Assembly: GCA_018694115.1 (NCBI GenBank)
Contig: JABHNB010000005.1
Coordinates: 374-64,373 of the forward strand
Length of the DNA: 64,000 nucleotides
Reading direction: 5' to 3'
Origin: an archaeon
Lineage (GTDB): Archaea; Nanobdellota; Nanobdellia; Pacearchaeales; GW2011-AR1
In this document: in pieces, positions 1,158 to 43,985 of the stretch
How the letters are laid out: each line of letters opens with the position of its first letter
How positions within the stretch are numbered: the stretch's first letter is position 1
Translations under genes and position numbers: made by a program
The notes under the pieces: generated by a model
The model's input: only the letters and a program-made list of their open reading frames with translations
Database searches by the model: none
What the model was told of the DNA's origin: nothing

Positions 1158-1214
1158 TCTCTACATATTTCTAACCACACATTTATTTTTAAACAGGATT
1201 TTTATTAAATTATT

Positions 1215-2249
1215 ATGGAATTAAACCCCGATACAGTTGTTTGGGAATACACATTAAAATGTGATTCAGGATGTTTACATTGCGGATCAGATGCCAAAGA
1301 TCCGAGGAAAAACGAACTAGACACTGCAGAGTCTTTAGGACTCGTAGATCAGATAGCCGATTTAGGATTCAGATTAATTGTCCTATCTGGGGGAGAGCCC
1401 ACCCTGAGGCCCGATTGGAAAACAATTGGAGCTAAGGTAAATGAAAGAAATCTTGATTTCGCAATTATAAGTAATACTCTTGCCTGGACTGGAAAAACCA
1501 TTGAAGATCTTGCAAATTTAAATCCGTACTCCATTGGCATAAGTGTGGATGGGGAAGAGAAGACACACGATTACCTTCGTGGACATAAGGGATCTCACAA
1601 AAAGATCTTTGATTCAATAAGGGCGCTAAAAGAAAGAAACCAAACCGTTTGTGCAGTCACAACTGTAAATAATCTCAACTTTAGAGAACTCCAAGACATA
1701 AGGAATCGACTCATTGTTTATGGCGTAGATGCTTGGCAAATCCAAACTGCTTCTCCGATGGGAAGAATGGCAAAACAAGAAAACTTAATTTTGAATTCTC
1801 AAGCGCATTATAAACTTGGGAAATTTGTTGCAGAGACTGCAGAAAGACTCCCCCATATGAATGTTGTTTCAGCAGACTGTCTAGGCTACTTTGGAAAATT
1901 GGGAGAGAGACTGGGGAAGGATAATTGGAGAGGGTGTGGGGCGGGAACATATGGCCTAGGAATCATGTCTGACGGAACTGTTAAGGGATGTTTGTCCATA
2001 TGGCATCCGGATGCAATCGAGGGAAATATTCGGGAAAGGTCCCTAAGGAGGATTTGGGAGGATCCAAACAATTTCGCATATAATCGGAAATTTAAACCGA
2101 GCGACCTTCGGGGAGATTGTGAGGGGTGTGATTTGGGAGACCTATGTAAGGGGGGATGTAATAGCCAGTCTATATCATTTTACTCCGAGTTTCATAACTC
2201 TCCTTACTGTTTTCACAGACATGAGAAAGAATTCCCTAGATCTAAATAA
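1215..2249 (+). CDS. radical SAM enzyme with C-terminal SPASM-type Cys-rich domain (peptide/cofactor maturase family)
   Basis: N-terminal CDSGCLHC (CxxxCxxC) and SGGEPTL motifs. The C-terminal ~90 aa carries about 7 Cys (CGAGTYG...GCLS...CEGCDLGDLCKGGCNSQS), typical of auxiliary Fe-S SPASM/twitch domains. Confidence 0.7.
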   Translation: MELNPDTVVWEYTLKCDSGCLHCGSDAKDPRKNELDTAESLGLVDQIADLGFRLIVLSGGEPTLRPDWKTIGAKVNERNLDFAIISNTLAWTGKTIEDLANLNPYSIGISVDGEEKTHDYLRGHKGSHKKIFDSIRALKERNQTVCAVTTVNNLNFRELQDIRNRLIVYGVDAWQIQTASPMGRMAKQENLILNSQAHYKLGKFVAETAERLPHMNVVSADCLGYFGKLGERLGKDNWRGCGAGTYGLGIMSDGTVKGCLSIWHPDAIEGNIRERSLRRIWEDPNNFAYNRKFKPSDLRGDCEGCDLGDLCKGGCNSQSISFYSEFHNSPYCFHRHEKEFPRSK

Positions 2250-18416: not shown

Positions 18417-19280
18417 ATGAATCGTTGTATAGTATGTAAAAAGACGTGCGAAGAGACCGAATTATATGAAGGAATCTTTGAGAGCGGAATGGTACTAATT
18501 TGTAAAACTTGTGCTGAAGAAGAAAAAATTCCCCTAATAAAAAAACCTTCTAGTGATCAGCTTCAGAAGGCCGATAAAAGATACTCTGTTAGGGAAAGAA
18601 TGGAGCACCTATCCGGGATGCGAGATGCCACAGAGATCGGAGGAGAACAAACCAATATTCAAAAAAATCTTGCAAGATTAAAGATGCCCGATAAAAAGCA
18701 ACAACACGAAGACGTTTCAAATAATTATTACTGGGAACTAAATATGGCGCGTAGGAGAAAAAAGCTTTCAATTAGGCAATTGGCTGAGCTAATAAAAATT
18801 GATGCAAGTATTCTATATTCTATTGAAAGTGGTAAAATTCCAGAAAACTTCGAAGAAATCTTTCTAAAGCTAGAATCTTTTCTAGGGCTAAAATTACTAA
18901 AGAACCATAAGAAGAAAATCAGTTTTACTAGAACCATTGATGAGGAAAAGGAAATTTTGAGTTCAGTAAGGAAAAGAATGGGCGAGCGTTTAGTGGGGGA
19001 AGGAGAAGATGGGGAAGAGGACCTAGTTGGAGAAATAGAAAATACCATTAAAGTAATAAAGAAAGTCCAAAAATCTGAAGAATCAAAGAATGACAAAATT
19101 ATCAAACTTAGAAACGGAGAAATTGATATGTCCAAGAGGGAAAACCTAAGCGATATAACCCTCAATGATCTTGTAGAAATCAAAAAGCAAAGAGAAGAGC
19201 AAGAGCAAGAAATTAAGGTACAAAAACAAAATTCTACAATGTTCGGCGATGATCTGGAGCTAGATATTGACGAGGTTTAA
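18417..19280 (+). CDS. Zn-ribbon + HTH (XRE-type) DNA-binding protein, MBF1-like architecture with long charged C-terminal tail
   Basis: N-terminal CxxC...CxxC (CIVCKK...CKTC). Central HTH (LSIRQLAELIKIDASILYSIESGK). The stop abuts the start of the downstream NDT-like gene. Confidence 0.5.
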   Translation: MNRCIVCKKTCEETELYEGIFESGMVLICKTCAEEEKIPLIKKPSSDQLQKADKRYSVRERMEHLSGMRDATEIGGEQTNIQKNLARLKMPDKKQQHEDVSNNYYWELNMARRRKKLSIRQLAELIKIDASILYSIESGKIPENFEEIFLKLESFLGLKLLKNHKKKISFTRTIDEEKEILSSVRKRMGERLVGEGEDGEEDLVGEIENTIKVIKKVQKSEESKNDKIIKLRNGEIDMSKRENLSDITLNDLVEIKKQREEQEQEIKVQKQNSTMFGDDLELDIDEV

Positions 19281-19796
19281 ATGGCAGGCAAGGTTATCCT
19301 CCCACCAAACTATCCCAATGATCCATTAATCTTTCTAGCAGGACCCATTCAAGGCGCCCCAGAATGGCATGATCCCGCAATCAGAATTATTCATGCAAAA
19401 GACTTAGAGATAAATATTGCGTCTCCAAGTCGGAGTGTAAGCGAGGAATATCTGAATCAGAACCTCGCAAAATTCGGAAATAGGTTTCCGGAGCAGGTTG
19501 ACTGGGAGAGTAAACACCTAAGGCAAGCTGCAGATCATGGAGCAATACTTTTCTGGATGCCTAAGGAGAAGACCCATTTTTGCGAAAGGGCGTATGCACA
19601 AACAACTCGTTTTGAATTAGGGGAATGGGCAACAAAGTCCAAATATGGAAAATGTGATCTGGCAGTAGGAATTCAGCCAGGATTCCCTGGAGAAAGCTAT
19701 ATTAGAAGAAGATTACATCAGGATCTTCCAGACTTAAAAATTCACATAACACTAAGAGAAACTTGCTGGGATGCAATTGAAAAAGCAAGAAGTTAG
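19281..19796 (+). CDS. nucleoside 2-deoxyribosyltransferase (NDT)-like protein
   Basis: FLAGPIQG N-terminal motif, ILFWMP, and an ELG acidic motif (RFELGEWAT), as in the NDT/YtoQ Rossmann-like family. Paralogous in pattern to 43536..43985. Confidence 0.5.
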   Translation: MAGKVILPPNYPNDPLIFLAGPIQGAPEWHDPAIRIIHAKDLEINIASPSRSVSEEYLNQNLAKFGNRFPEQVDWESKHLRQAADHGAILFWMPKEKTHFCERAYAQTTRFELGEWATKSKYGKCDLAVGIQPGFPGESYIRRRLHQDLPDLKIHITLRETCWDAIEKARS

Positions 19797-19839
19797 TCCT
19801 TATCGGCAGGGTTATATAGGCAAAGAAATTTGAAAAATT

Positions 19840-20685
19840 ATGAACTTCCCAGAATTAGCAATACTTAAACCTACTTCTAGATGTAATCAAAATTGTAAAT
19901 ATTGCTATGACGTAAAAAATCCTTGCGAAATTTCCTTAGATGAAATAAAGAAAATTATTTCTTATATCTCCCAAAATGGGACAAAATCGGTAATTATTAG
20001 TGGTGGAGAACCTCTTCTTAGGGAAGATATTGGAGAAATAATGGCAGAAATAAAATCTAAAGGTTTAAACGTTTTTTTAGATACAAATGGAGATTTCTTT
20101 CTAGATAGGTTAAATGAAATTGAAAGAAATATCGATATCTTGGGATTGCCCCTAGATGGTCCTTCAGAAGAGTTTTCATATAGGGGGAAGGAAAATTTCC
20201 AAAATGTGATAAAGATACTTGAGCATTATAAATCTAAAAAAGAACGGCCAAAAATTAGAATCGGGACCGTTGTGACAAAAGAAAATATAAATCTTTTGGA
20301 AGATATCGCGAAATTAATAAGAAATTTTGAAATAGACGTGTGGAAAATTTATCAGTTCATGCCTACTGGCCCTCTAGCAACAAAAAATAGGGCTGCTTTG
20401 GAAATTGACGAAAGAAGCTTTCTCGAGGCCATTAAAAATTTAAAAGATAAAAACCTCCAGTTAAACATATTAACTTGTTCCTCAGAAAGTCGCAAGAGAG
20501 CTCATTTTTTTATAGGATCTGACGGAAAAGTATATGTTCCCGAAGACGAGAAGGGAGATTGCAAGATTCTTGGAAGTGTGTTTGAAAAGGGCACAATTGA
20601 AGAATGGAAAAGAATAACGGACCTAAAAAGCTATAAAGAAAATTCCGAAAAAGTTCTTTACCCCCTGTCTTTAGAAGAGCATTAA
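19840..20685 (+). CDS. viperin-like radical SAM enzyme (pVip family candidate)
   Basis: CNQNCKYC and ISGGEPLL motifs. Collinear resemblance to viperin beyond the radical-SAM core: IDILGLPLDGPSEEF vs ILAISCDSFDEE, and DVWKIYQ vs VRWKVFQ. Confidence 0.55.
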   Translation: MNFPELAILKPTSRCNQNCKYCYDVKNPCEISLDEIKKIISYISQNGTKSVIISGGEPLLREDIGEIMAEIKSKGLNVFLDTNGDFFLDRLNEIERNIDILGLPLDGPSEEFSYRGKENFQNVIKILEHYKSKKERPKIRIGTVVTKENINLLEDIAKLIRNFEIDVWKIYQFMPTGPLATKNRAALEIDERSFLEAIKNLKDKNLQLNILTCSSESRKRAHFFIGSDGKVYVPEDEKGDCKILGSVFEKGTIEEWKRITDLKSYKENSEKVLYPLSLEEH

Positions 20686-20691
20686 AACGTC

Positions 20692-21378: not shown

Positions 21379-23433
21379 TCACATCCTTTGAATATAACCT
21401 CGTTTAGGTCTAAATAAATCTCCTGCCTTAACCATCTTTCCCAAGGCCTCTTCAAAATCTGAGTCCTTCATCTTTTCCTTAAGTTCTTTTTCTAATTCTT
21501 CTATCGGAATTAATTTCCCCAGCCGATTTTCCAGAGCTTCGACTGCCTCCCGAATAATAGACATCTTATTCCTTTTAGAGGCAGAATTTCCACTGATTTT
21601 ATCAATATCAATTGTCTTTGTCTCTTCATCATAACCCACTTGCATCAAATATCCCTTAACTAGCGAGATTGCGGCAAGAGCATCTTTCTTGGTAACCTTC
21701 TTACTCAATCTAATCCTTGCATGAGCCTCTGCCAAACGAACCAATGCTTCAAGCTGTCGAGCACCGATAGGAATCGGACGATTAGGACTATCTCCTAACT
21801 GTGGTTGATTACGAAGACCAACATAAAAACTCTTCATCTCGGCAACTGCCTCATCCGTAAGGATTGGATCATATTTCTGTTTTGCATATGAAACATATTT
21901 TCTCAATAAATCCCTATCGATTACATCATGCTGAGTCTTATGTTTTGTATCCTGCTTATGTTCCATTAAAACATGCATTGCAATGGATTCATCCCGATCC
22001 TTGCTGGGGATATCCCGCATAATAAAAATACAGTCAAAACGACTTAACAATGAGGGTGGGAGGTTTACCTGTTTAGGAATAGATTGCGTTGGATCAAATC
22101 GACCAAACTTTGGATTAGCCGCCGCAAGAACTGCAGTCTGAGAACGCAAGGTTGCTTGAACCGTAGCCTTAGAAATTGTAACTGTCTGTTGTTCCATCGC
22201 CTCATGCATTGTACTCCGATCTTCCTCATCCATCTTATCGAACTCATCAATACAAATCAACCCCTTATTCGCCAAAACCATTGCACCAGCCTCAAGAGAC
22301 CAACCCTTCAACAATTCATCCTTAACTACCGTAGCAGTTAATCCCGCACCAGTTGCGGATTTTCCCGAAACATATCTTGCCTTTGGCGCAATTCCTGAAA
22401 TAAAACCTAACATAACCGATTTCGCAACACCTGGATCTCCCACAAGAAGGATATGAATATCTCCCCTCATCTTTGTCCCATCACTTCGCTGTTTCTTTAC
22501 TCCCCCGAATAATTGAAATGCCAACGCCCTTTTCTCTTCGTTTTGTCCCCAAATAGATGGCGCAATACTTCCAACCATTTTATCCATAATCTGGGGGTCA
22601 GCAGCCAATTCTCTAATTGCTCTTTCATCCTCTTCACTAATATCTACATCTTCAAAACTCTCTTCAAGGGGAACAACATTATTCGCCTCAATAGCCAAAT
22701 CAAACCTTGTCAAGACTGCCCCCGAAGATGAAGATAACGCAATTTCTTTCAAAATTCCAATAATCATAACCCTACTTCCTGGAGTTGTTCTCATCTCCAT
22801 CTTTGGATCAACTAAATCTTCCTTAAGGAAAATATTCATTCTCTTTGGTTGCTCTCCTCCACTAAGGTTGTCAGATGCTTCTTCAATTGTTAATGCCTGT
22901 GCGTCAACCATATGCTTAGATATTTCCTTAAATCCTCCCCGCCTTCCACAAGAACATCTTGACGGTTCCTTGAACTTCTTATCAATCTGCAAAACAGAAA
23001 TAATCGTTCCACATGAAGGACATTCAAATTTCGCGTTTGTAACTAATGGTCGAACTTCAGAGGCCTTTCGAACGATACCTTCAATACTAACCATCTTTCC
23101 AAGATGCTTTGCCCGAATATTTCTAATTAAGATCTCTTGGGACTTTGAGATACTTATGAATCTTGCTCGAGCGTTGTTTGGTGCCCACTCTAACTCTTCA
23201 AGTGCAATTTCCAATAACTGGACTGTTTCTTCAGGCCTGTCCAATAATTGCTCTGCTAATTGTGGAGAGTGTGCAGAAAAATCCTCAAAATCAATATGAA
23301 CAATCTTATCTCCCCGTTTCTTAACTTCACCAATGTCTTTCCGATTCATTTCAAAGAATTCTTTTGCATCCGCTAGAAATTCATCTTGATTAATTCTTTC
23401 AGGACTATTCCCCTCTTTTGGTTCATCCACCAT
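21379..23433 (-). CDS. mcm: minichromosome maintenance replicative helicase MCM
   Basis: N-terminal Zn-finger (CPSCG...CSCG). Walker A (GDPGVAKS), Walker B (IDEFDKM), arginine finger (SRFD) and C-terminal wH. Confidence 0.85.
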   Translation of the reverse strand: MVDEPKEGNSPERINQDEFLADAKEFFEMNRKDIGEVKKRGDKIVHIDFEDFSAHSPQLAEQLLDRPEETVQLLEIALEELEWAPNNARARFISISKSQEILIRNIRAKHLGKMVSIEGIVRKASEVRPLVTNAKFECPSCGTIISVLQIDKKFKEPSRCSCGRRGGFKEISKHMVDAQALTIEEASDNLSGGEQPKRMNIFLKEDLVDPKMEMRTTPGSRVMIIGILKEIALSSSSGAVLTRFDLAIEANNVVPLEESFEDVDISEEDERAIRELAADPQIMDKMVGSIAPSIWGQNEEKRALAFQLFGGVKKQRSDGTKMRGDIHILLVGDPGVAKSVMLGFISGIAPKARYVSGKSATGAGLTATVVKDELLKGWSLEAGAMVLANKGLICIDEFDKMDEEDRSTMHEAMEQQTVTISKATVQATLRSQTAVLAAANPKFGRFDPTQSIPKQVNLPPSLLSRFDCIFIMRDIPSKDRDESIAMHVLMEHKQDTKHKTQHDVIDRDLLRKYVSYAKQKYDPILTDEAVAEMKSFYVGLRNQPQLGDSPNRPIPIGARQLEALVRLAEAHARIRLSKKVTKKDALAAISLVKGYLMQVGYDEETKTIDIDKISGNSASKRNKMSIIREAVEALENRLGKLIPIEELEKELKEKMKDSDFEEALGKMVKAGDLFRPKRGYIQRM

Positions 23434-24919: not shown

Positions 24920-25636
24920 CTAAATCTCACCCTTCAAATAACTCTTCCTTTTCCCCTCTTCAAATCTCTCAATTGCATACCTCAACATTGTTCGGGGCAT
25001 CATCATATATCTTCCGCCTTCTTGTAAAAATTTCTCAAGAACCTTCTGGTTTCTCTTACCAATTTCACGCAACATCCAGCCAACAGCTTTATGGATCAAA
25101 TCATGTCCGTCTTTTAACAATAACTTCGCAATCTTCAATGTATCTCCAAAATCTCCCGCCCGAATAAAAGCAAATGTCGCAAGAATCGCGATTCGCCTTT
25201 CCCATAAATTATCACTCTTAACTAAATCATACAATACTTTCCTCTCTTTCTTCTTATCAAGCAAGTAACCCCCCACAACATATGGTGCAGACAAATCAAC
25301 TATATCCCAATTATTTATTCCCCGAGTATTTCCCAAATAGAAATCATAGATCTTCTTTTTCTCTTGTTCATCAGAGGCACGTTTAAACTTCTCAACCAAA
25401 ATCAAAGATCCCACATTTCTCTCATCATGAATTTCAGAATCCAGCAAACTTTTAACATCCTCAAAACTAGCTTCCTCCCAAAACTTCTTAACAACAGCCC
25501 TCTGCCGAGGCATCATCACCCCTAAAAAAATATCCCCTTCACCATACTGCCCTGGCCCAGTCTTGAAAAATCCTTGGAGGATTTTAGCTTTCTCTGGATT
25601 TGCATACTTCTTCAAGGCATCTTTGACGCTTTTCAT
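24920..25636 (-). CDS. DNA alkylation repair protein (AlkD/AlkC-like HEAT-repeat glycosylase family)
   Basis: The N-terminal pattern (ALKKYANPEKAKILQGFFKTGPGQYGEGDIFLGV) and helical repeat architecture match the DNA_alkylation family. Confidence 0.55.
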   Translation of the reverse strand: MKSVKDALKKYANPEKAKILQGFFKTGPGQYGEGDIFLGVMMPRQRAVVKKFWEEASFEDVKSLLDSEIHDERNVGSLILVEKFKRASDEQEKKKIYDFYLGNTRGINNWDIVDLSAPYVVGGYLLDKKKERKVLYDLVKSDNLWERRIAILATFAFIRAGDFGDTLKIAKLLLKDGHDLIHKAVGWMLREIGKRNQKVLEKFLQEGGRYMMMPRTMLRYAIERFEEGKRKSYLKGEI

Positions 25637-26061
25637 TCTAATCCAAAGAATAATTTAATACAAAGATCTTCATCAAGAACCAAAGGTAGGCCTAATGCAT
25701 CTTCTGGAGAAGCCCATTGAAAATCTTTATGTTCTTCAGATCTAAGATTTATCTCAGGTTTTTCTTCAAACGGAGAATGAAAGATATGATAAACAAAATC
25801 ATAGTCCGGAAGTCTCACAAATATTTTCTTAAAATGATTGGCTTCTGGAAGATTCAATCCTGTTTCTTCCATTACTTCTCTAACAATCGCTTCACCAATA
25901 TTTTCCCCTTCATCAACCTTTCCAGCAGGACATCCCCAAGTTCCTCCCTGTGGCTTATGATCCTGGCGATGAAGAAGTAAAATCTTTCCATCAACTTCAA
26001 CAAAACATCCAACTACTTCAAAAGTAGGTTCAAAATTCTCGGGTTCTTCTTCGTAAATCAT
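25633..26061 (-). CDS. NUDIX hydrolase
   Basis: Nudix box GKVDEGENIGEAIVREVMEETGL. Confidence 0.65.
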   Translation of the reverse strand: MIYEEEPENFEPTFEVVGCFVEVDGKILLLHRQDHKPQGGTWGCPAGKVDEGENIGEAIVREVMEETGLNLPEANHFKKIFVRLPDYDFVYHIFHSPFEEKPEINLRSEEHKDFQWASPEDALGLPLVLDEDLCIKLFFGLE

Positions 26062-26090
26062 ATAACTAAACAGAGAAGGGAGTTATAAAC

Positions 26091-43139: not shown

Positions 43140-43539
43140 ACTAAGAATCGGTGTTGTAGGATCAGAAGAGAATTTCGATGAAGCAGAAGCTCAAGAAATG
43201 ATTTTAGAAGCATTTGATAAATTAGATCTCCAATGCCCTACAAAAACAAAAATAATCGTTTCTGGATTAACTGACAGGGGAATAAAGGCAATAGCTTATC
43301 GAGAAGCAACAAAAAGAAATTGGGGAACTATGGGCATTGCCTGTTCAAGAGCAAGAGAATACGATTGTTTTCCTGTGGATGAAAAAATAATTGAAGGCAA
43401 TGAATGGGGGGATGAGAGCTCAACATTTCTGGACAACATTGAAGTCCTAATTAGGATCGGAGGAGGGAACCAATCCTTCCGGGAAACTGCTGAAGCAAAA
43501 GCAAGAGGAAAGCAAGTTATGGAGGGAGACTTATCATGA
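43132..43539 (+). CDS. small Rossmann-like SLOG/DprA-LOG-superfamily protein (tentative)
   Basis: IGVVGS..., IVSGLTDRGIKAIAYREA and a C-terminal IGGGNQSFRETAE resembling the LOG/DprA PGGxGTxxE motif. Only 135 aa. Confidence 0.3.
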   Translation: MNELRIGVVGSEENFDEAEAQEMILEAFDKLDLQCPTKTKIIVSGLTDRGIKAIAYREATKRNWGTMGIACSRAREYDCFPVDEKIIEGNEWGDESSTFLDNIEVLIRIGGGNQSFRETAEAKARGKQVMEGDLS

Positions 43540-43985
43540 AATACATTGAAGCTCCAGAGATATATGGTGGAAAAGATAAAAGCTTATTCCTGGCTGGAGG
43601 AATCTCGAACTGTCCAAACTGGCAAGAAGAATTGGCAAATCATCTTAACAACGAAGATCTAGTTTTGCTTAACCCCCGAAGAGCGAATTTCCCGATAAAC
43701 GATTCCTCTGCTGCAGAAAAACAAATCCAATGGGAATTCAATCATCTTAGGAAAGCAACGGCAGTTTCATTCTGGTTTCCAAAAGAAACCCTTTGTCCAA
43801 TAGTTCTGTGTGAGTTGGGGGCTTGGTCTATGACTGACAAACCATTGTTTATCGGAATCGATCCAGAGTACCCGAGAAAGCAAGATGTCGAGATTCAAAC
43901 AAAACTGGCTAGGCCGGATATAAAAATAGTCTATGATCTAAAATCTCTCTCCGAGCAAATAAGGGGCTGGGCGAATAAAGAATAA
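43536..43985 (+). CDS. nucleoside 2-deoxyribosyltransferase (NDT)-like protein, paralog 2
   Basis: FLAGGISN, FWFP and VLCELGAWS (ELG) motifs. Same motif order as 19281..19796. Confidence 0.5.
   Translation: MKYIEAPEIYGGKDKSLFLAGGISNCPNWQEELANHLNNEDLVLLNPRRANFPINDSSAAEKQIQWEFNHLRKATAVSFWFPKETLCPIVLCELGAWSMTDKPLFIGIDPEYPRKQDVEIQTKLARPDIKIVYDLKSLSEQIRGWANKE

Follow-up and report, generated by a model that had tools for sequence, protein, structure and literature searches.

Known Systems Related to the Locus

The described radical-SAM (rSAM) enzymes closest to the protein that we have analyzed are the viperins, including their prokaryotic forms (pVips), which convert CTP, UTP or GTP into ddh-nucleotide chain terminators. 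MoaA, the GTP 3',8-cyclase, has the rSAM core in common with our protein and is the standard outgroup of viperins. A preliminary description of the DNA studied here stated that prokaryotic viperins are usually paired with nucleotide kinases, which is overstated: a kinase neighbor is present for one of eight curated plasmid pVips, and PADLOC has a separate model for viperins lacking kinases.

A further point of comparison is Ophion, a defence system of Gammaproteobacteria formed by the rSAM protein OpnA, the PHP protein OpnB and the PRTase OpnC, in which OpnA is described as related to, yet distinct from, pVips (bioRxiv 10.1101/2025.09.30.679545). In this system the rSAM enzyme has two partners, one a phosphoesterase and the other acting on N-glycosidic bonds, which in conceptual terms is what the preliminary description proposed for our locus. 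In composition, Ophion also parallels the HD and PRTase-CE fusions of some relatives of our protein. The three-gene composition itself is absent here, since neither a PHP protein nor a PRTase turned up beside the rSAM gene when the flanking ORFs were scanned with Pfam.

Features of the Viperin-Like Gene

The window, by which we mean the whole stretch of 64,000 nucleotides under analysis, contains three adjoining ORFs on the plus strand, separated by gaps of 0 and 43 bp as originally described. Their features are as follows:

18417..19280, plus strand: aMBF1-like protein of 287 aa with Zn-ribbon, HTH and a long charged C-terminal tail; housekeeping neighbor
19281..19796, plus strand: NDT-like protein of 171 aa, divergent PF15891 member and conserved DPANN gene; abuts the first ORF
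19812..19818, plus strand: TTATATA, TATA-box-like element read from the sequence, 22 nt upstream of the ATG
19840..20685, plus strand: viperin-like radical-SAM enzyme gene, 281 aa; the only gene counted as the feature itself
19882..19905, plus strand: [4Fe-4S] cluster motif CxxxCxxC (C15, C19, C22; CNQNCKYC, residues 15-22), invariant in the family alignment
20002..20013, plus strand: SAM-binding motif GGEP (G55 G56 E57 P58), invariant in the family and aligned with viperin G125 G126 E127
20149..20151, plus strand: Pro104 in a GLPxD motif, replacing the viperin-invariant Ser180
20341..20346, plus strand: Trp168-Lys169, equivalent to viperin W246-K247, a viperin-type motif missing from outgroup rSAMs
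20503..20505, plus strand: His222, at the position of the invariant active-site Tyr302 of viperin

The window rSAM matches Pfam PF04055 with 79 bits and possesses the radical-SAM core expected of a viperin, with both the cluster motif and GGE; its C15, C19 and C22 align with C84, C88 and C91 of mouse viperin. The motifs quoted in the preliminary description are all real, namely CNQNCKYC, ISGGEPLL (residues 53-60) and DVWKIYQ (residues 166-172), and the collinear similarity with the C-terminal part of viperin that it had noted is sustained by both HMMER and hhalign alignments, in which W168 and K169 correspond to mouse W246 and K247, and F194 to F277. The 43 bp between the end of ORF 19281-19796 and the start of ORF 19840-20685 include the TTATATA element, the spacing of which to the ATG fits that of archaeal TATA boxes. 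It suggests that transcription may start from a promoter belonging to this gene and leave hardly any leader, even if an AT-rich 7-mer of this kind is without statistical significance in a genome with 62% A+T.

Relationship with Viperins

Viperin is the best match of the window rSAM in NCBIfam and PADLOC, with a nearly full-length coverage of the models that distinguishes it from unrelated rSAMs, and also in sequence and fold searches of the PDB. [quoted passage not shown] The label of viperin-like rSAM stands with respect to fold and best match, whereas placement within the pVip clade does not. Against NF038283 the protein scores 92.4 bits, under the curated equivalog cutoff of 180; on this scale three true pVips reach 243-316 bits and unrelated rSAMs 68-76. 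With the PADLOC pVip model it scores 106; true pVips lie at 223-298 with this model and unrelated proteins at 65-90. All ten proteins tested from its family and from the MID group presented below score 63-118, and hence are sub-threshold as viperins. In a neighbor-joining (NJ) tree with MoaA as outgroup, a distance method being the only one applied, the family falls inside the clade of pVips and eukaryotic viperins in none of 200 bootstraps; support is 77% for the viperin clade and 82% for the family clade, while the deep branching among rSAM groups has 23%.

The residues point in the same direction. Outside the generic rSAM core, the positions that are invariant across 11 true viperins comprise N77, H79, S180, K220, N222, W246, K247, Y302 and R347, which we take to have roles in CTP binding (PDB 6Q2P). 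Five of these are replaced in the family, N77 (by Ile or Thr), H79 (Lys or Arg), S180 (Pro), N222 (Gly) and R347, and E293 and N295 of viperin likewise lack conservation; W246 and K247 are kept, K220 is present as Arg, and Y302 is retained in the family while being His in the window protein. The tryptophan is found in 35 of 35 family members and the following lysine in 34, in a column that is mostly a gap in outgroups. Proline at the Ser180 position occurs in 34 of the 35 and is common to the tight family and the wider MID group (for example, in the window, E. coli plasmid, L028, L029 and P0051 proteins), true viperins having serine. By cutoff, clade and residues, therefore, the window rSAM is outside the curated viperins.

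The link with viperins is itself qualified by the comparison of profiles. In hhalign the family scores 204 with viperins and 237 with an unrelated group of rSAMs of about 340 aa; since its profile is no nearer to viperins than to these proteins, what ties it to viperins is the fold, the length of the chain, the extension at the C-terminus and a small number of motifs. Raw pairwise identity is uninformative between groups, being 21% to pVips and 21% to outgroups. Two other assignments were discarded: MoaA, because of scores of 62-66 bits against cutoffs of 284-325 and an hhalign score of 92, and a SPASM-type peptide maturase, because the protein has no SPASM domain. The window contains another rSAM, at 1209-2246, which is of the SPASM type.

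The Adjacent NDT-Like Gene

For both neighbors upstream of the rSAM gene, Pfam gives domains in line with the preliminary description. The NDT-like protein matches PF15891 (Nuc_deoxyri_tr2) with 35.5 bits, above the gathering score of 30, and appears to resemble the nucleoside 2-deoxyribosyltransferase superfamily (PF15891; YtoQ, DNPH1, NDT) in a flavodoxin-like alternating beta/alpha fold and in a glutamate of an ELG-type motif, E112 within FELGEW, a candidate nucleophile that is invariant among its homologs. Solved members of the superfamily are only remotely similar in structure: for the AF2 model (pLDDT 89.6) the best Foldseek match is YtoQ (probability 0.91, E 0.026), every match has E > 0.01, and TM values with DNPH1 and NDT are 0.45-0.57. 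The first ORF combines an N-terminal CxxC...CxxC ribbon with Pfam matches to HTH_19 and HTH_3, and aligns to positions 2-141 of the 159 of the TIGR00270 aMBF1 model with 36 bits (cutoff 110).

What these genes do together is another matter. The preliminary description envisaged a two-enzyme pathway, in which N-glycosidic cleavage or base exchange by the NDT-like protein would be coupled to the radical chemistry of the rSAM; in such a pathway this chemistry would take place on the sugar, and the aMBF1-like protein would act as regulator. If so, the pair should recur, and it does not: an NDT-like ORF is near the rSAM gene in none of the 21 other loci of the tight family (the flanks reach 1.5 kb or more on both sides in 13 of them, and on one side or both in 20). 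Nor do the two genes come and go together. The syntenic genome P0122, carrying the closest relative of the NDT-like protein (73% identity), has the aMBF1-NDT pair without the rSAM, and in syntenic locus L019 the rSAM lies elsewhere, namely between aRF1 and ScpB, a tRNA-Ala takes the place expected for NDT, and there is no NDT between aMBF1 and RPA-OB. Moreover, the NDT family (>779 homologs at about 50% identity) exceeds the rSAM family (about 50 matches) more than 15-fold in size, a second PF15891 paralog lies 23 kb away in the window (43494-43982, 64.2 bits), a TATA-like element sits in the intergenic gap, and aMBF1 is a general archaeal factor. We consider the pathway very unlikely on these grounds. 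All-against-all clustering of the ORFs within 8 kb around the rSAM in 15 loci found nothing repeated besides the rSAM itself and the synteny of the window with L019.

The NDT-like gene is a neighbor of the rSAM, not a demonstrated partner; it looks like a chance one, and its adjacency should not be read as a new system. The surroundings consist of aRF1, ScpB, GT2, aMBF1, NDT, RPA-OB, MCM and Cbf5, and the aMBF1-like and NDT-like genes are residents of this conserved housekeeping block; the former keeps its place both in L019, where it is 49% identical, and in the P0122 genome, and it is conserved with and without the rSAM.

Distribution and Relatives of the Family

The sequence relatives of the window rSAM form a tight family of about 50 matches, patchily distributed in DPANN archaea and CPR/Patescibacteria bacteria, which is a small, unnamed and unstudied branch of its own, sister to a larger viperin-like group that is also sub-threshold. 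Family loci mostly have housekeeping neighbors rather than defence islands, and the window locus has no defence-type context, be it a kinase partner, a defence island or a mobile element; a search of a phage collection found no relative of the window protein. A P-loop protein beside P0038 (L135) was evaluated as a partner and rejected, for it is a one-off neighbor from a large unannotated family. The gene nevertheless behaves as a mobile accessory gene. It has the lowest GC of the block (0.33 vs 0.38), and is 42% identical to the rSAM of L019, whereas the block neighbors are 60-79% identical; the two rSAMs are sisters in 2% of bootstraps. Archaeal and bacterial members interleave in the tree, with a pair of Patescibacteria and Woesearchaeota at 85% and archaeal monophyly at 0%. 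Most probably, the rSAM gene entered the block on its own.

Some members of the tight family have a C-terminal fusion with an HD phosphohydrolase, a domain that has no free-standing homolog in the window and no match among PDB sequences. The closest relatives outside the family are the MID group (E. coli plasmid NZ_CP027324.1 WP_106894703.1; P0050-P0061; P0256 and P0266), hosted mostly by Bacillota and Pseudomonadota, which has an hhalign score of 484 and 25-35% identity with the family, and resembles it in the W motif, in having proline where viperins have Ser180, and in size (about 285 aa). Together, the two comprise about 438 representatives at 50% identity with E <= 1e-30. MID proteins differ from the window gene in having nucleotide-related partners, such as deoxynucleoside kinase and NUDIX, or immune-type fusions, and these fusions and kinase/NUDIX operons are features of the MID sister group and not of the tight family. 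The closest annotated relative, on an E. coli conjugative plasmid, is in an overlapping operon with a deoxynucleoside kinase and NudI that adjoins an IS element and toxin-antitoxin genes. Pairs of rSAM and NUDIX are present in L028, L029 and L050, with two weak NDT-like genes and PfkB as additional companions in L029, while fusions in the wider clade involve TIR, caspase, WD40 and PRTase-CE, those with TIR and caspase being P0256 and P0266. The idea that such an rSAM teams up with nucleotide enzymes thus has a basis in more distant relatives only, and none in the NDT pairing of the window.

Possible Function and Alternative Interpretations

The interpretation toward which we lean, as being somewhat probable, is that the window rSAM is an accessory enzyme of viperin architecture, horizontally acquired and inserted alone into a housekeeping block, which modifies nucleotides and possibly has an antiviral role. 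The protein combines a partial TIM barrel, bearing the CxxxCxxC cluster, with the C-terminal extension that closes it; as in viperin, a 5'-deoxyadenosyl radical would react with the sugar moiety of a small phosphorylated molecule, for which a nucleotide is the likeliest candidate. The product may be a modified nucleotide, of ddh type or a variant thereof, interfering with virus replication, and in some relatives the fused HD phosphohydrolase could process either substrate or product. The link of the family with nucleotides is drawn from the HD fusions within it and from the kinase/NUDIX operons of its relatives. Substrate and product are probably unlike those of canonical viperin, given the substitutions at several invariant positions of the pocket and, in the window protein, the histidine that stands where viperin has its active-site Tyr.

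Could the protein instead be a divergent but genuine prokaryotic viperin, producing the same chain terminators as pVips? Viperins are its best match in NCBIfam, in PADLOC and in the sequence and fold searches of the PDB, with model coverage near full length, the residues equivalent to W246 and K247 are kept, with a conservative Arg for K220 and Tyr302 maintained in the family, and one family member has been named RSAD2 by JGI. Against this stand a score of half the curated cutoff, the bootstraps, the five replaced residues and His222, besides the restriction of the tight family to DPANN and CPR organisms and the HD domain fused in some members; we deem a genuine viperin distinctly unlikely. 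The histidine opens the question of a window copy that is catalytically impaired or decaying, for Tyr is found at this position in 33 of 35 family members and in 11 of 11 true viperins. Judging from the residue itself, the change could alter or abolish the chemistry of the window protein. Yet impairment or decay is highly improbable: the ORF is intact and of full length, cluster and SAM motifs are all kept, and P0038 has the same His, the only other case in the family. The position tolerates variation, since Asn occupies it in the relative from the E. coli plasmid, and the exact window protein is seen on 20 contigs, so that His222 is not an assembly error.

Another alternative is a metabolic or housekeeping rSAM with no part in defence, the substrate of which would be something other than a nucleotide, such as a cofactor, a peptide or, for surface glycans, an NDP-sugar. 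We regard this as unlikely, given that no neighbor of any kind is conserved in the 15 loci, that the protein lacks SPASM or twitch domains as well as a conserved precursor peptide, and that the HD fusions and the partners of relatives indicate nucleotides; furthermore, the patchy distribution across domains of life and the shifting position in syntenic genomes argue against a core function. A bolder proposal, in our opinion rather unlikely, would unite the tight family and MID in a second, undescribed viperin-like immune branch, with a product other than ddhNTP and lineage-specific partners (HD, NUDIX, nucleoside kinase, PRTase, NDT-superfamily); here the NDT-like protein of the window might be a recent recruit, and sharing between DPANN and CPR would derive from inter-domain transfer.

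We now return to the nucleotide-modifying accessory enzyme that we favor. DPANN archaea and CPR bacteria have, to our knowledge, few defence genes. Should the clade act on nucleotides, this would be a candidate for an immune gene exchanged between two groups of ultra-small symbionts, and viperin-type chemistry would reach a new branch, the pocket of which is built differently, possibly yielding new antiviral nucleotide analogs. The same activity would explain many sub-threshold genes called 'radical SAM protein' that are near plasmid kinase and NUDIX genes or in fusions with TIR and caspase. Standard detectors would miss the window rSAM, because its score is well below viperin cutoffs. A scan of metagenomes, which retrieved mostly generic rSAM cores, one of its patterns being the common GGEPL motif, added two loci of the tight family and one of MID.

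Gene arrangement and surroundings

The three ORFs lie exactly at the coordinates and on the strand given in the preliminary description:

18417-19280, + strand: aMBF1-like Zn-ribbon/HTH ORF, 287 aa
19281-19796, + strand: nucleoside 2-deoxyribosyltransferase (NDT)-like ORF, 171 aa, abutting the aMBF1-like ORF
19840-20685, + strand: viperin-like radical-SAM (rSAM) ORF, 281 aa, 43 bp beyond the NDT-like ORF

They are flanked by a block comprising aRF1, ScpB, a GT2 glycosyltransferase, an RPA-like OB-fold protein, MCM and Cbf5, and the genes of the window have their closest homologues in assemblies of Woesearchaeota, Pacearchaeota and Nanoarchaeota. The first protein combines an N-terminal CxxC...CxxC ribbon with an HTH (Pfam HTH_19 and HTH_3), its top NCBIfam match being the archaeal multiprotein bridging factor aMBF1 (36 bits vs. 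a cutoff of 110, most of the model covered); antisense ORFs across its gene mirror a low-complexity charged region and were set aside. PF04055 (79 bits) identifies the third as a radical-SAM protein, in which the motifs CNQNCKYC, ISGGEPLL and DVWKIYQ are all present. An ORF with a Nudix box (25636-26082, - strand) lies about 5 kb from the rSAM gene, not adjacent to it, and is probably unrelated. Elsewhere in the window (1209-2246, + strand) there is a radical SAM/SPASM protein of 346 aa, whose best NCBIfam match, nif11-class peptide maturase 3 (232 bits vs. a cutoff of 725), raises the possibility of a RiPP-type maturase in this DPANN archaeon.

A viperin fold outside the viperin family

The rSAM protein has a viperin-type fold with intact cluster and SAM sites. 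Viperin comes out on top in NCBIfam (NF038283), PADLOC (pVip), the PDB sequence search and both fold searches, and the Foldseek TM of about 0.8 holds when normalised by either chain, so that the C-terminal extension matches viperin too. The small DPANN/CPR clade holding this protein, hereafter the tight family, aligns as a profile with that of viperin over 257 columns (probability 99.95%). The match to the curated viperin model NF038283 nevertheless reaches only 92 bits against a cutoff of 180, and we calibrated this score and that of PADLOC on three true prokaryotic viperins (pVips), unrelated rSAMs and MoaA.

Calibration of the viperin models (bits)
Three true pVips: NF038283 243-316; PADLOC pVip 223-298; model matched over its full length
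Unrelated rSAMs and MoaA: NF038283 68-76 (unrelated rSAMs); PADLOC pVip 65-90; N-terminal core only
Window protein: NF038283 92; PADLOC pVip 106; model matched over nearly its full length

On this scale the window protein scores barely above background; only its coverage of the whole model sets it apart. In profile-profile comparison, moreover, the tight family reaches 204 against viperins, no better than its 237 against a group of unrelated rSAMs of about 340 aa.

Phylogeny points the same way. In a tree including eight plasmid genes annotated as viperin family, three eukaryotic viperins (sequences from PDB alignments) and, as outgroups, E. coli MoaA and other rSAMs, the true viperins form a clade with 77% bootstrap and the tight family a clade of its own with 82%, which falls inside the viperins in 0 of 200 bootstraps. 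At the positions conserved in at least 90% of the 11 true viperins (mouse numbering), the tight family keeps the generic core together with W246-K247, F277, K220 (as Arg) and Tyr302, while N77, H79, S180 (Pro), N222 (Gly), E293, N295 and R347 are replaced. Tyr302, which a review lists as a proposed proton-coupled electron-transfer residue (PMC8124187), is Tyr in 33 of 35 family members and His in the window protein and one other, P0038; the His is real, since the identical protein is found on 20 contigs. The viperin-like label of the preliminary description thus holds at the level of fold, with a partly viperin-like pocket, and fails at that of membership, for the protein lies outside the viperin family as currently delimited.

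A distinct protein clade in DPANN and CPR organisms

A word-indexed search retrieves about 50 proteins related to the window rSAM at 37-49% identity; an exhaustive HMMER run against 1.84 billion representatives returns 438 of them at E <= 1e-30, and the tight family accounts for about 18 clusters at 50% identity. Its hosts are DPANN archaea and CPR bacteria (Saccharibacteria, Berkelbacteria and other Patescibacteria), and an HD phosphohydrolase domain forms the C-terminus of several members, which are about 480 aa long. Archaea and bacteria are interleaved in its tree (a Patescibacteria plus Woesearchaeota pair has 85% bootstrap, archaeal monophyly 0%), which indicates transfer between domains. 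One further member comes from a contig that binning assigned to 'uncultured Gammaproteobacteria' (CAZIHS010000023.1, locus L018); given the otherwise DPANN/CPR range, the contig may have been misbinned or the gene transferred once more.

Next nearest is a larger sister group, MID (25-35% identity, hhalign score 484), which has Pro at the Ser180 position as in the tight family and also scores under the viperin cutoff (77-120 bits). On the E. coli conjugative plasmid NZ_CP027324.1 (L134:6974-8984), and again on NZ_CP045714.1, the genes for a MID radical-SAM protein, a deoxynucleoside kinase and the NUDIX enzyme NudI overlap in one operon, adjoining in the former IS600 and RelE/ParE toxin-antitoxin genes; PGAP makes no viperin call in this viperin-plus-kinase-like cassette. 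NUDIX genes are coupled to MID rSAMs also at L028, L029 and L050. L029 (Pseudomonadales MAG CAYXRB010000011.1, L029:9495-13009) is a tightly packed operon of NUDIX, MID rSAM (25% identical to the window protein), NDT-like, PfkB kinase and second NDT-like genes, preceded by thymidylate synthase and RecR. It is the only site with an rSAM of this kind beside NDT-superfamily genes, both of which match PF05014 under its gathering score (17 and 20 bits). Other MID members from the HMMER search (P0256, P0257, P0266, P0261, P0316, P0258 and P0285) are sub-threshold viperin-like rSAM modules fused to TIR, caspase (Peptidase_C14), WD40 arrays, receiver plus PRTase-CE, AsnC/MarR-type domains or a methyltransferase, which suggests that the wider clade serves in immunity or conflict systems. 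Among the papers searched, none connects viperin-like enzymes to DPANN/CPR organisms or to HD or NUDIX partners. The tight family thus stands as an uncharacterised viperin-like clade common to DPANN and CPR organisms, and is moderately interesting.

Possible substrate and role

The rSAM would act on a sugar compound that bears phosphate, most likely a nucleotide, because the W-K motif and several Arg/Lys residues (R115, R140, K169, R218) are conserved and because relatives have HD fusions and kinase, NUDIX or PRTase partners. As in viperin, the 5'-deoxyadenosyl radical would take a hydrogen from the ribose, and dehydration, or some variant of that step, would come next; given the altered pocket and His222 (window numbering), substrate or product may differ from those of viperin. 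The enzyme would act against viruses, by analogy with viperins and the Ophion defence system and from the immune-type fusions of the sister group; we give this role, taken on its own, less than an even chance, because none of the tight-family loci is a defence island.

Is the NDT-like gene a partner?

The NDT-like protein matches PF15891 at 35.5 bits (gathering score 30), a paralogue at 43494-43982 (+ strand) reaching 64 bits. Its AF2 model, a confident one (pLDDT 89.6), has only remote likeness to solved NDT-superfamily structures: YtoQ at probability 0.91, DNPH1 and NDT at TM 0.45-0.57, all with E > 0.01. Glu112 of the FELGEW motif is invariant. The protein is best regarded as a diverged member of PF15891, widespread in DPANN and plausibly used in nucleoside salvage.

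The novelty claimed in the preliminary description lay in the coupling of this gene to the rSAM, which our comparisons do not support. An HMM of its family, run against all six-frame ORFs at every tight-family rSAM locus, detects it at 0 of the 21 other distinct loci; flanks of 1.5 kb or more are present on both sides in 13 of these and on one side or more in 20. Queries from the PF05014-like genes of L029 gave no match at these loci, and when neighbours at rSAM loci were clustered all against all, no partner of whatever kind proved to be conserved. The question is decided by two syntenic genomes. The one encoding P0122, the nearest NDT homologue (73% identity), has the order ScpB, GT2, 243-aa gene, 288-aa gene, NDT, RPA-OB, MCM, TruB, and its block lacks the rSAM. 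The Nanoarchaeota MAG L019 shares the whole block with the window at 60-79% protein identity, places its rSAM (42% identical to that of the window) between aRF1 and ScpB, and has tRNA-Ala(CGC) and no NDT in the gap from aMBF1 to RPA-OB (L019:14580-14650); in the family tree these two rSAMs do not group as sisters (2% bootstrap).

Contents of the aMBF1/RPA-OB junction
Window, 19281-20691: NDT and rSAM
P0122 genome: NDT and, in the rSAM slot, a 119-aa reverse-strand gene

Hence the junction is a variable slot, and the window and L019 genomes acquired their rSAMs independently. The NDT family is also far larger than that of the rSAM (more than 779 matches at about 50% identity), its other contexts having neither aMBF1 nor rSAM, and the presence of a second, higher-scoring paralogue in the window also argues against a pairing. 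A TTATATA element that precedes the rSAM start codon by 22 nt, as read from the sequence, could be a promoter of the gene's own, which would speak against a partnership; the GC content of the rSAM gene, lowest in the block (0.33 vs. 0.38 for the window and 0.43 for the NDT gene), counts weakly in the same direction. Where genes are packed this closely, a chance neighbour from nucleotide metabolism is not improbable, and whichever one occurred would have drawn notice. The rSAM behaves as an accessory, horizontally transferred gene that does not depend on the NDT gene.

The neighbour of P0038 is a one-off and not an NDT: a 147-aa protein with the Walker-A motif AFPGTGKTY (L135:1482-1925), 35 bp downstream of the rSAM and found at no other rSAM locus. 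It belongs to a large family (more than 714 matches) of small proteins without Pfam domain or PDB relative. Within the syntenic block, the window MCM (21379-23433) has 684 aa and no intein, and that of the P0122 genome has 1132 aa, including an intein with a LAGLIDADG domain.
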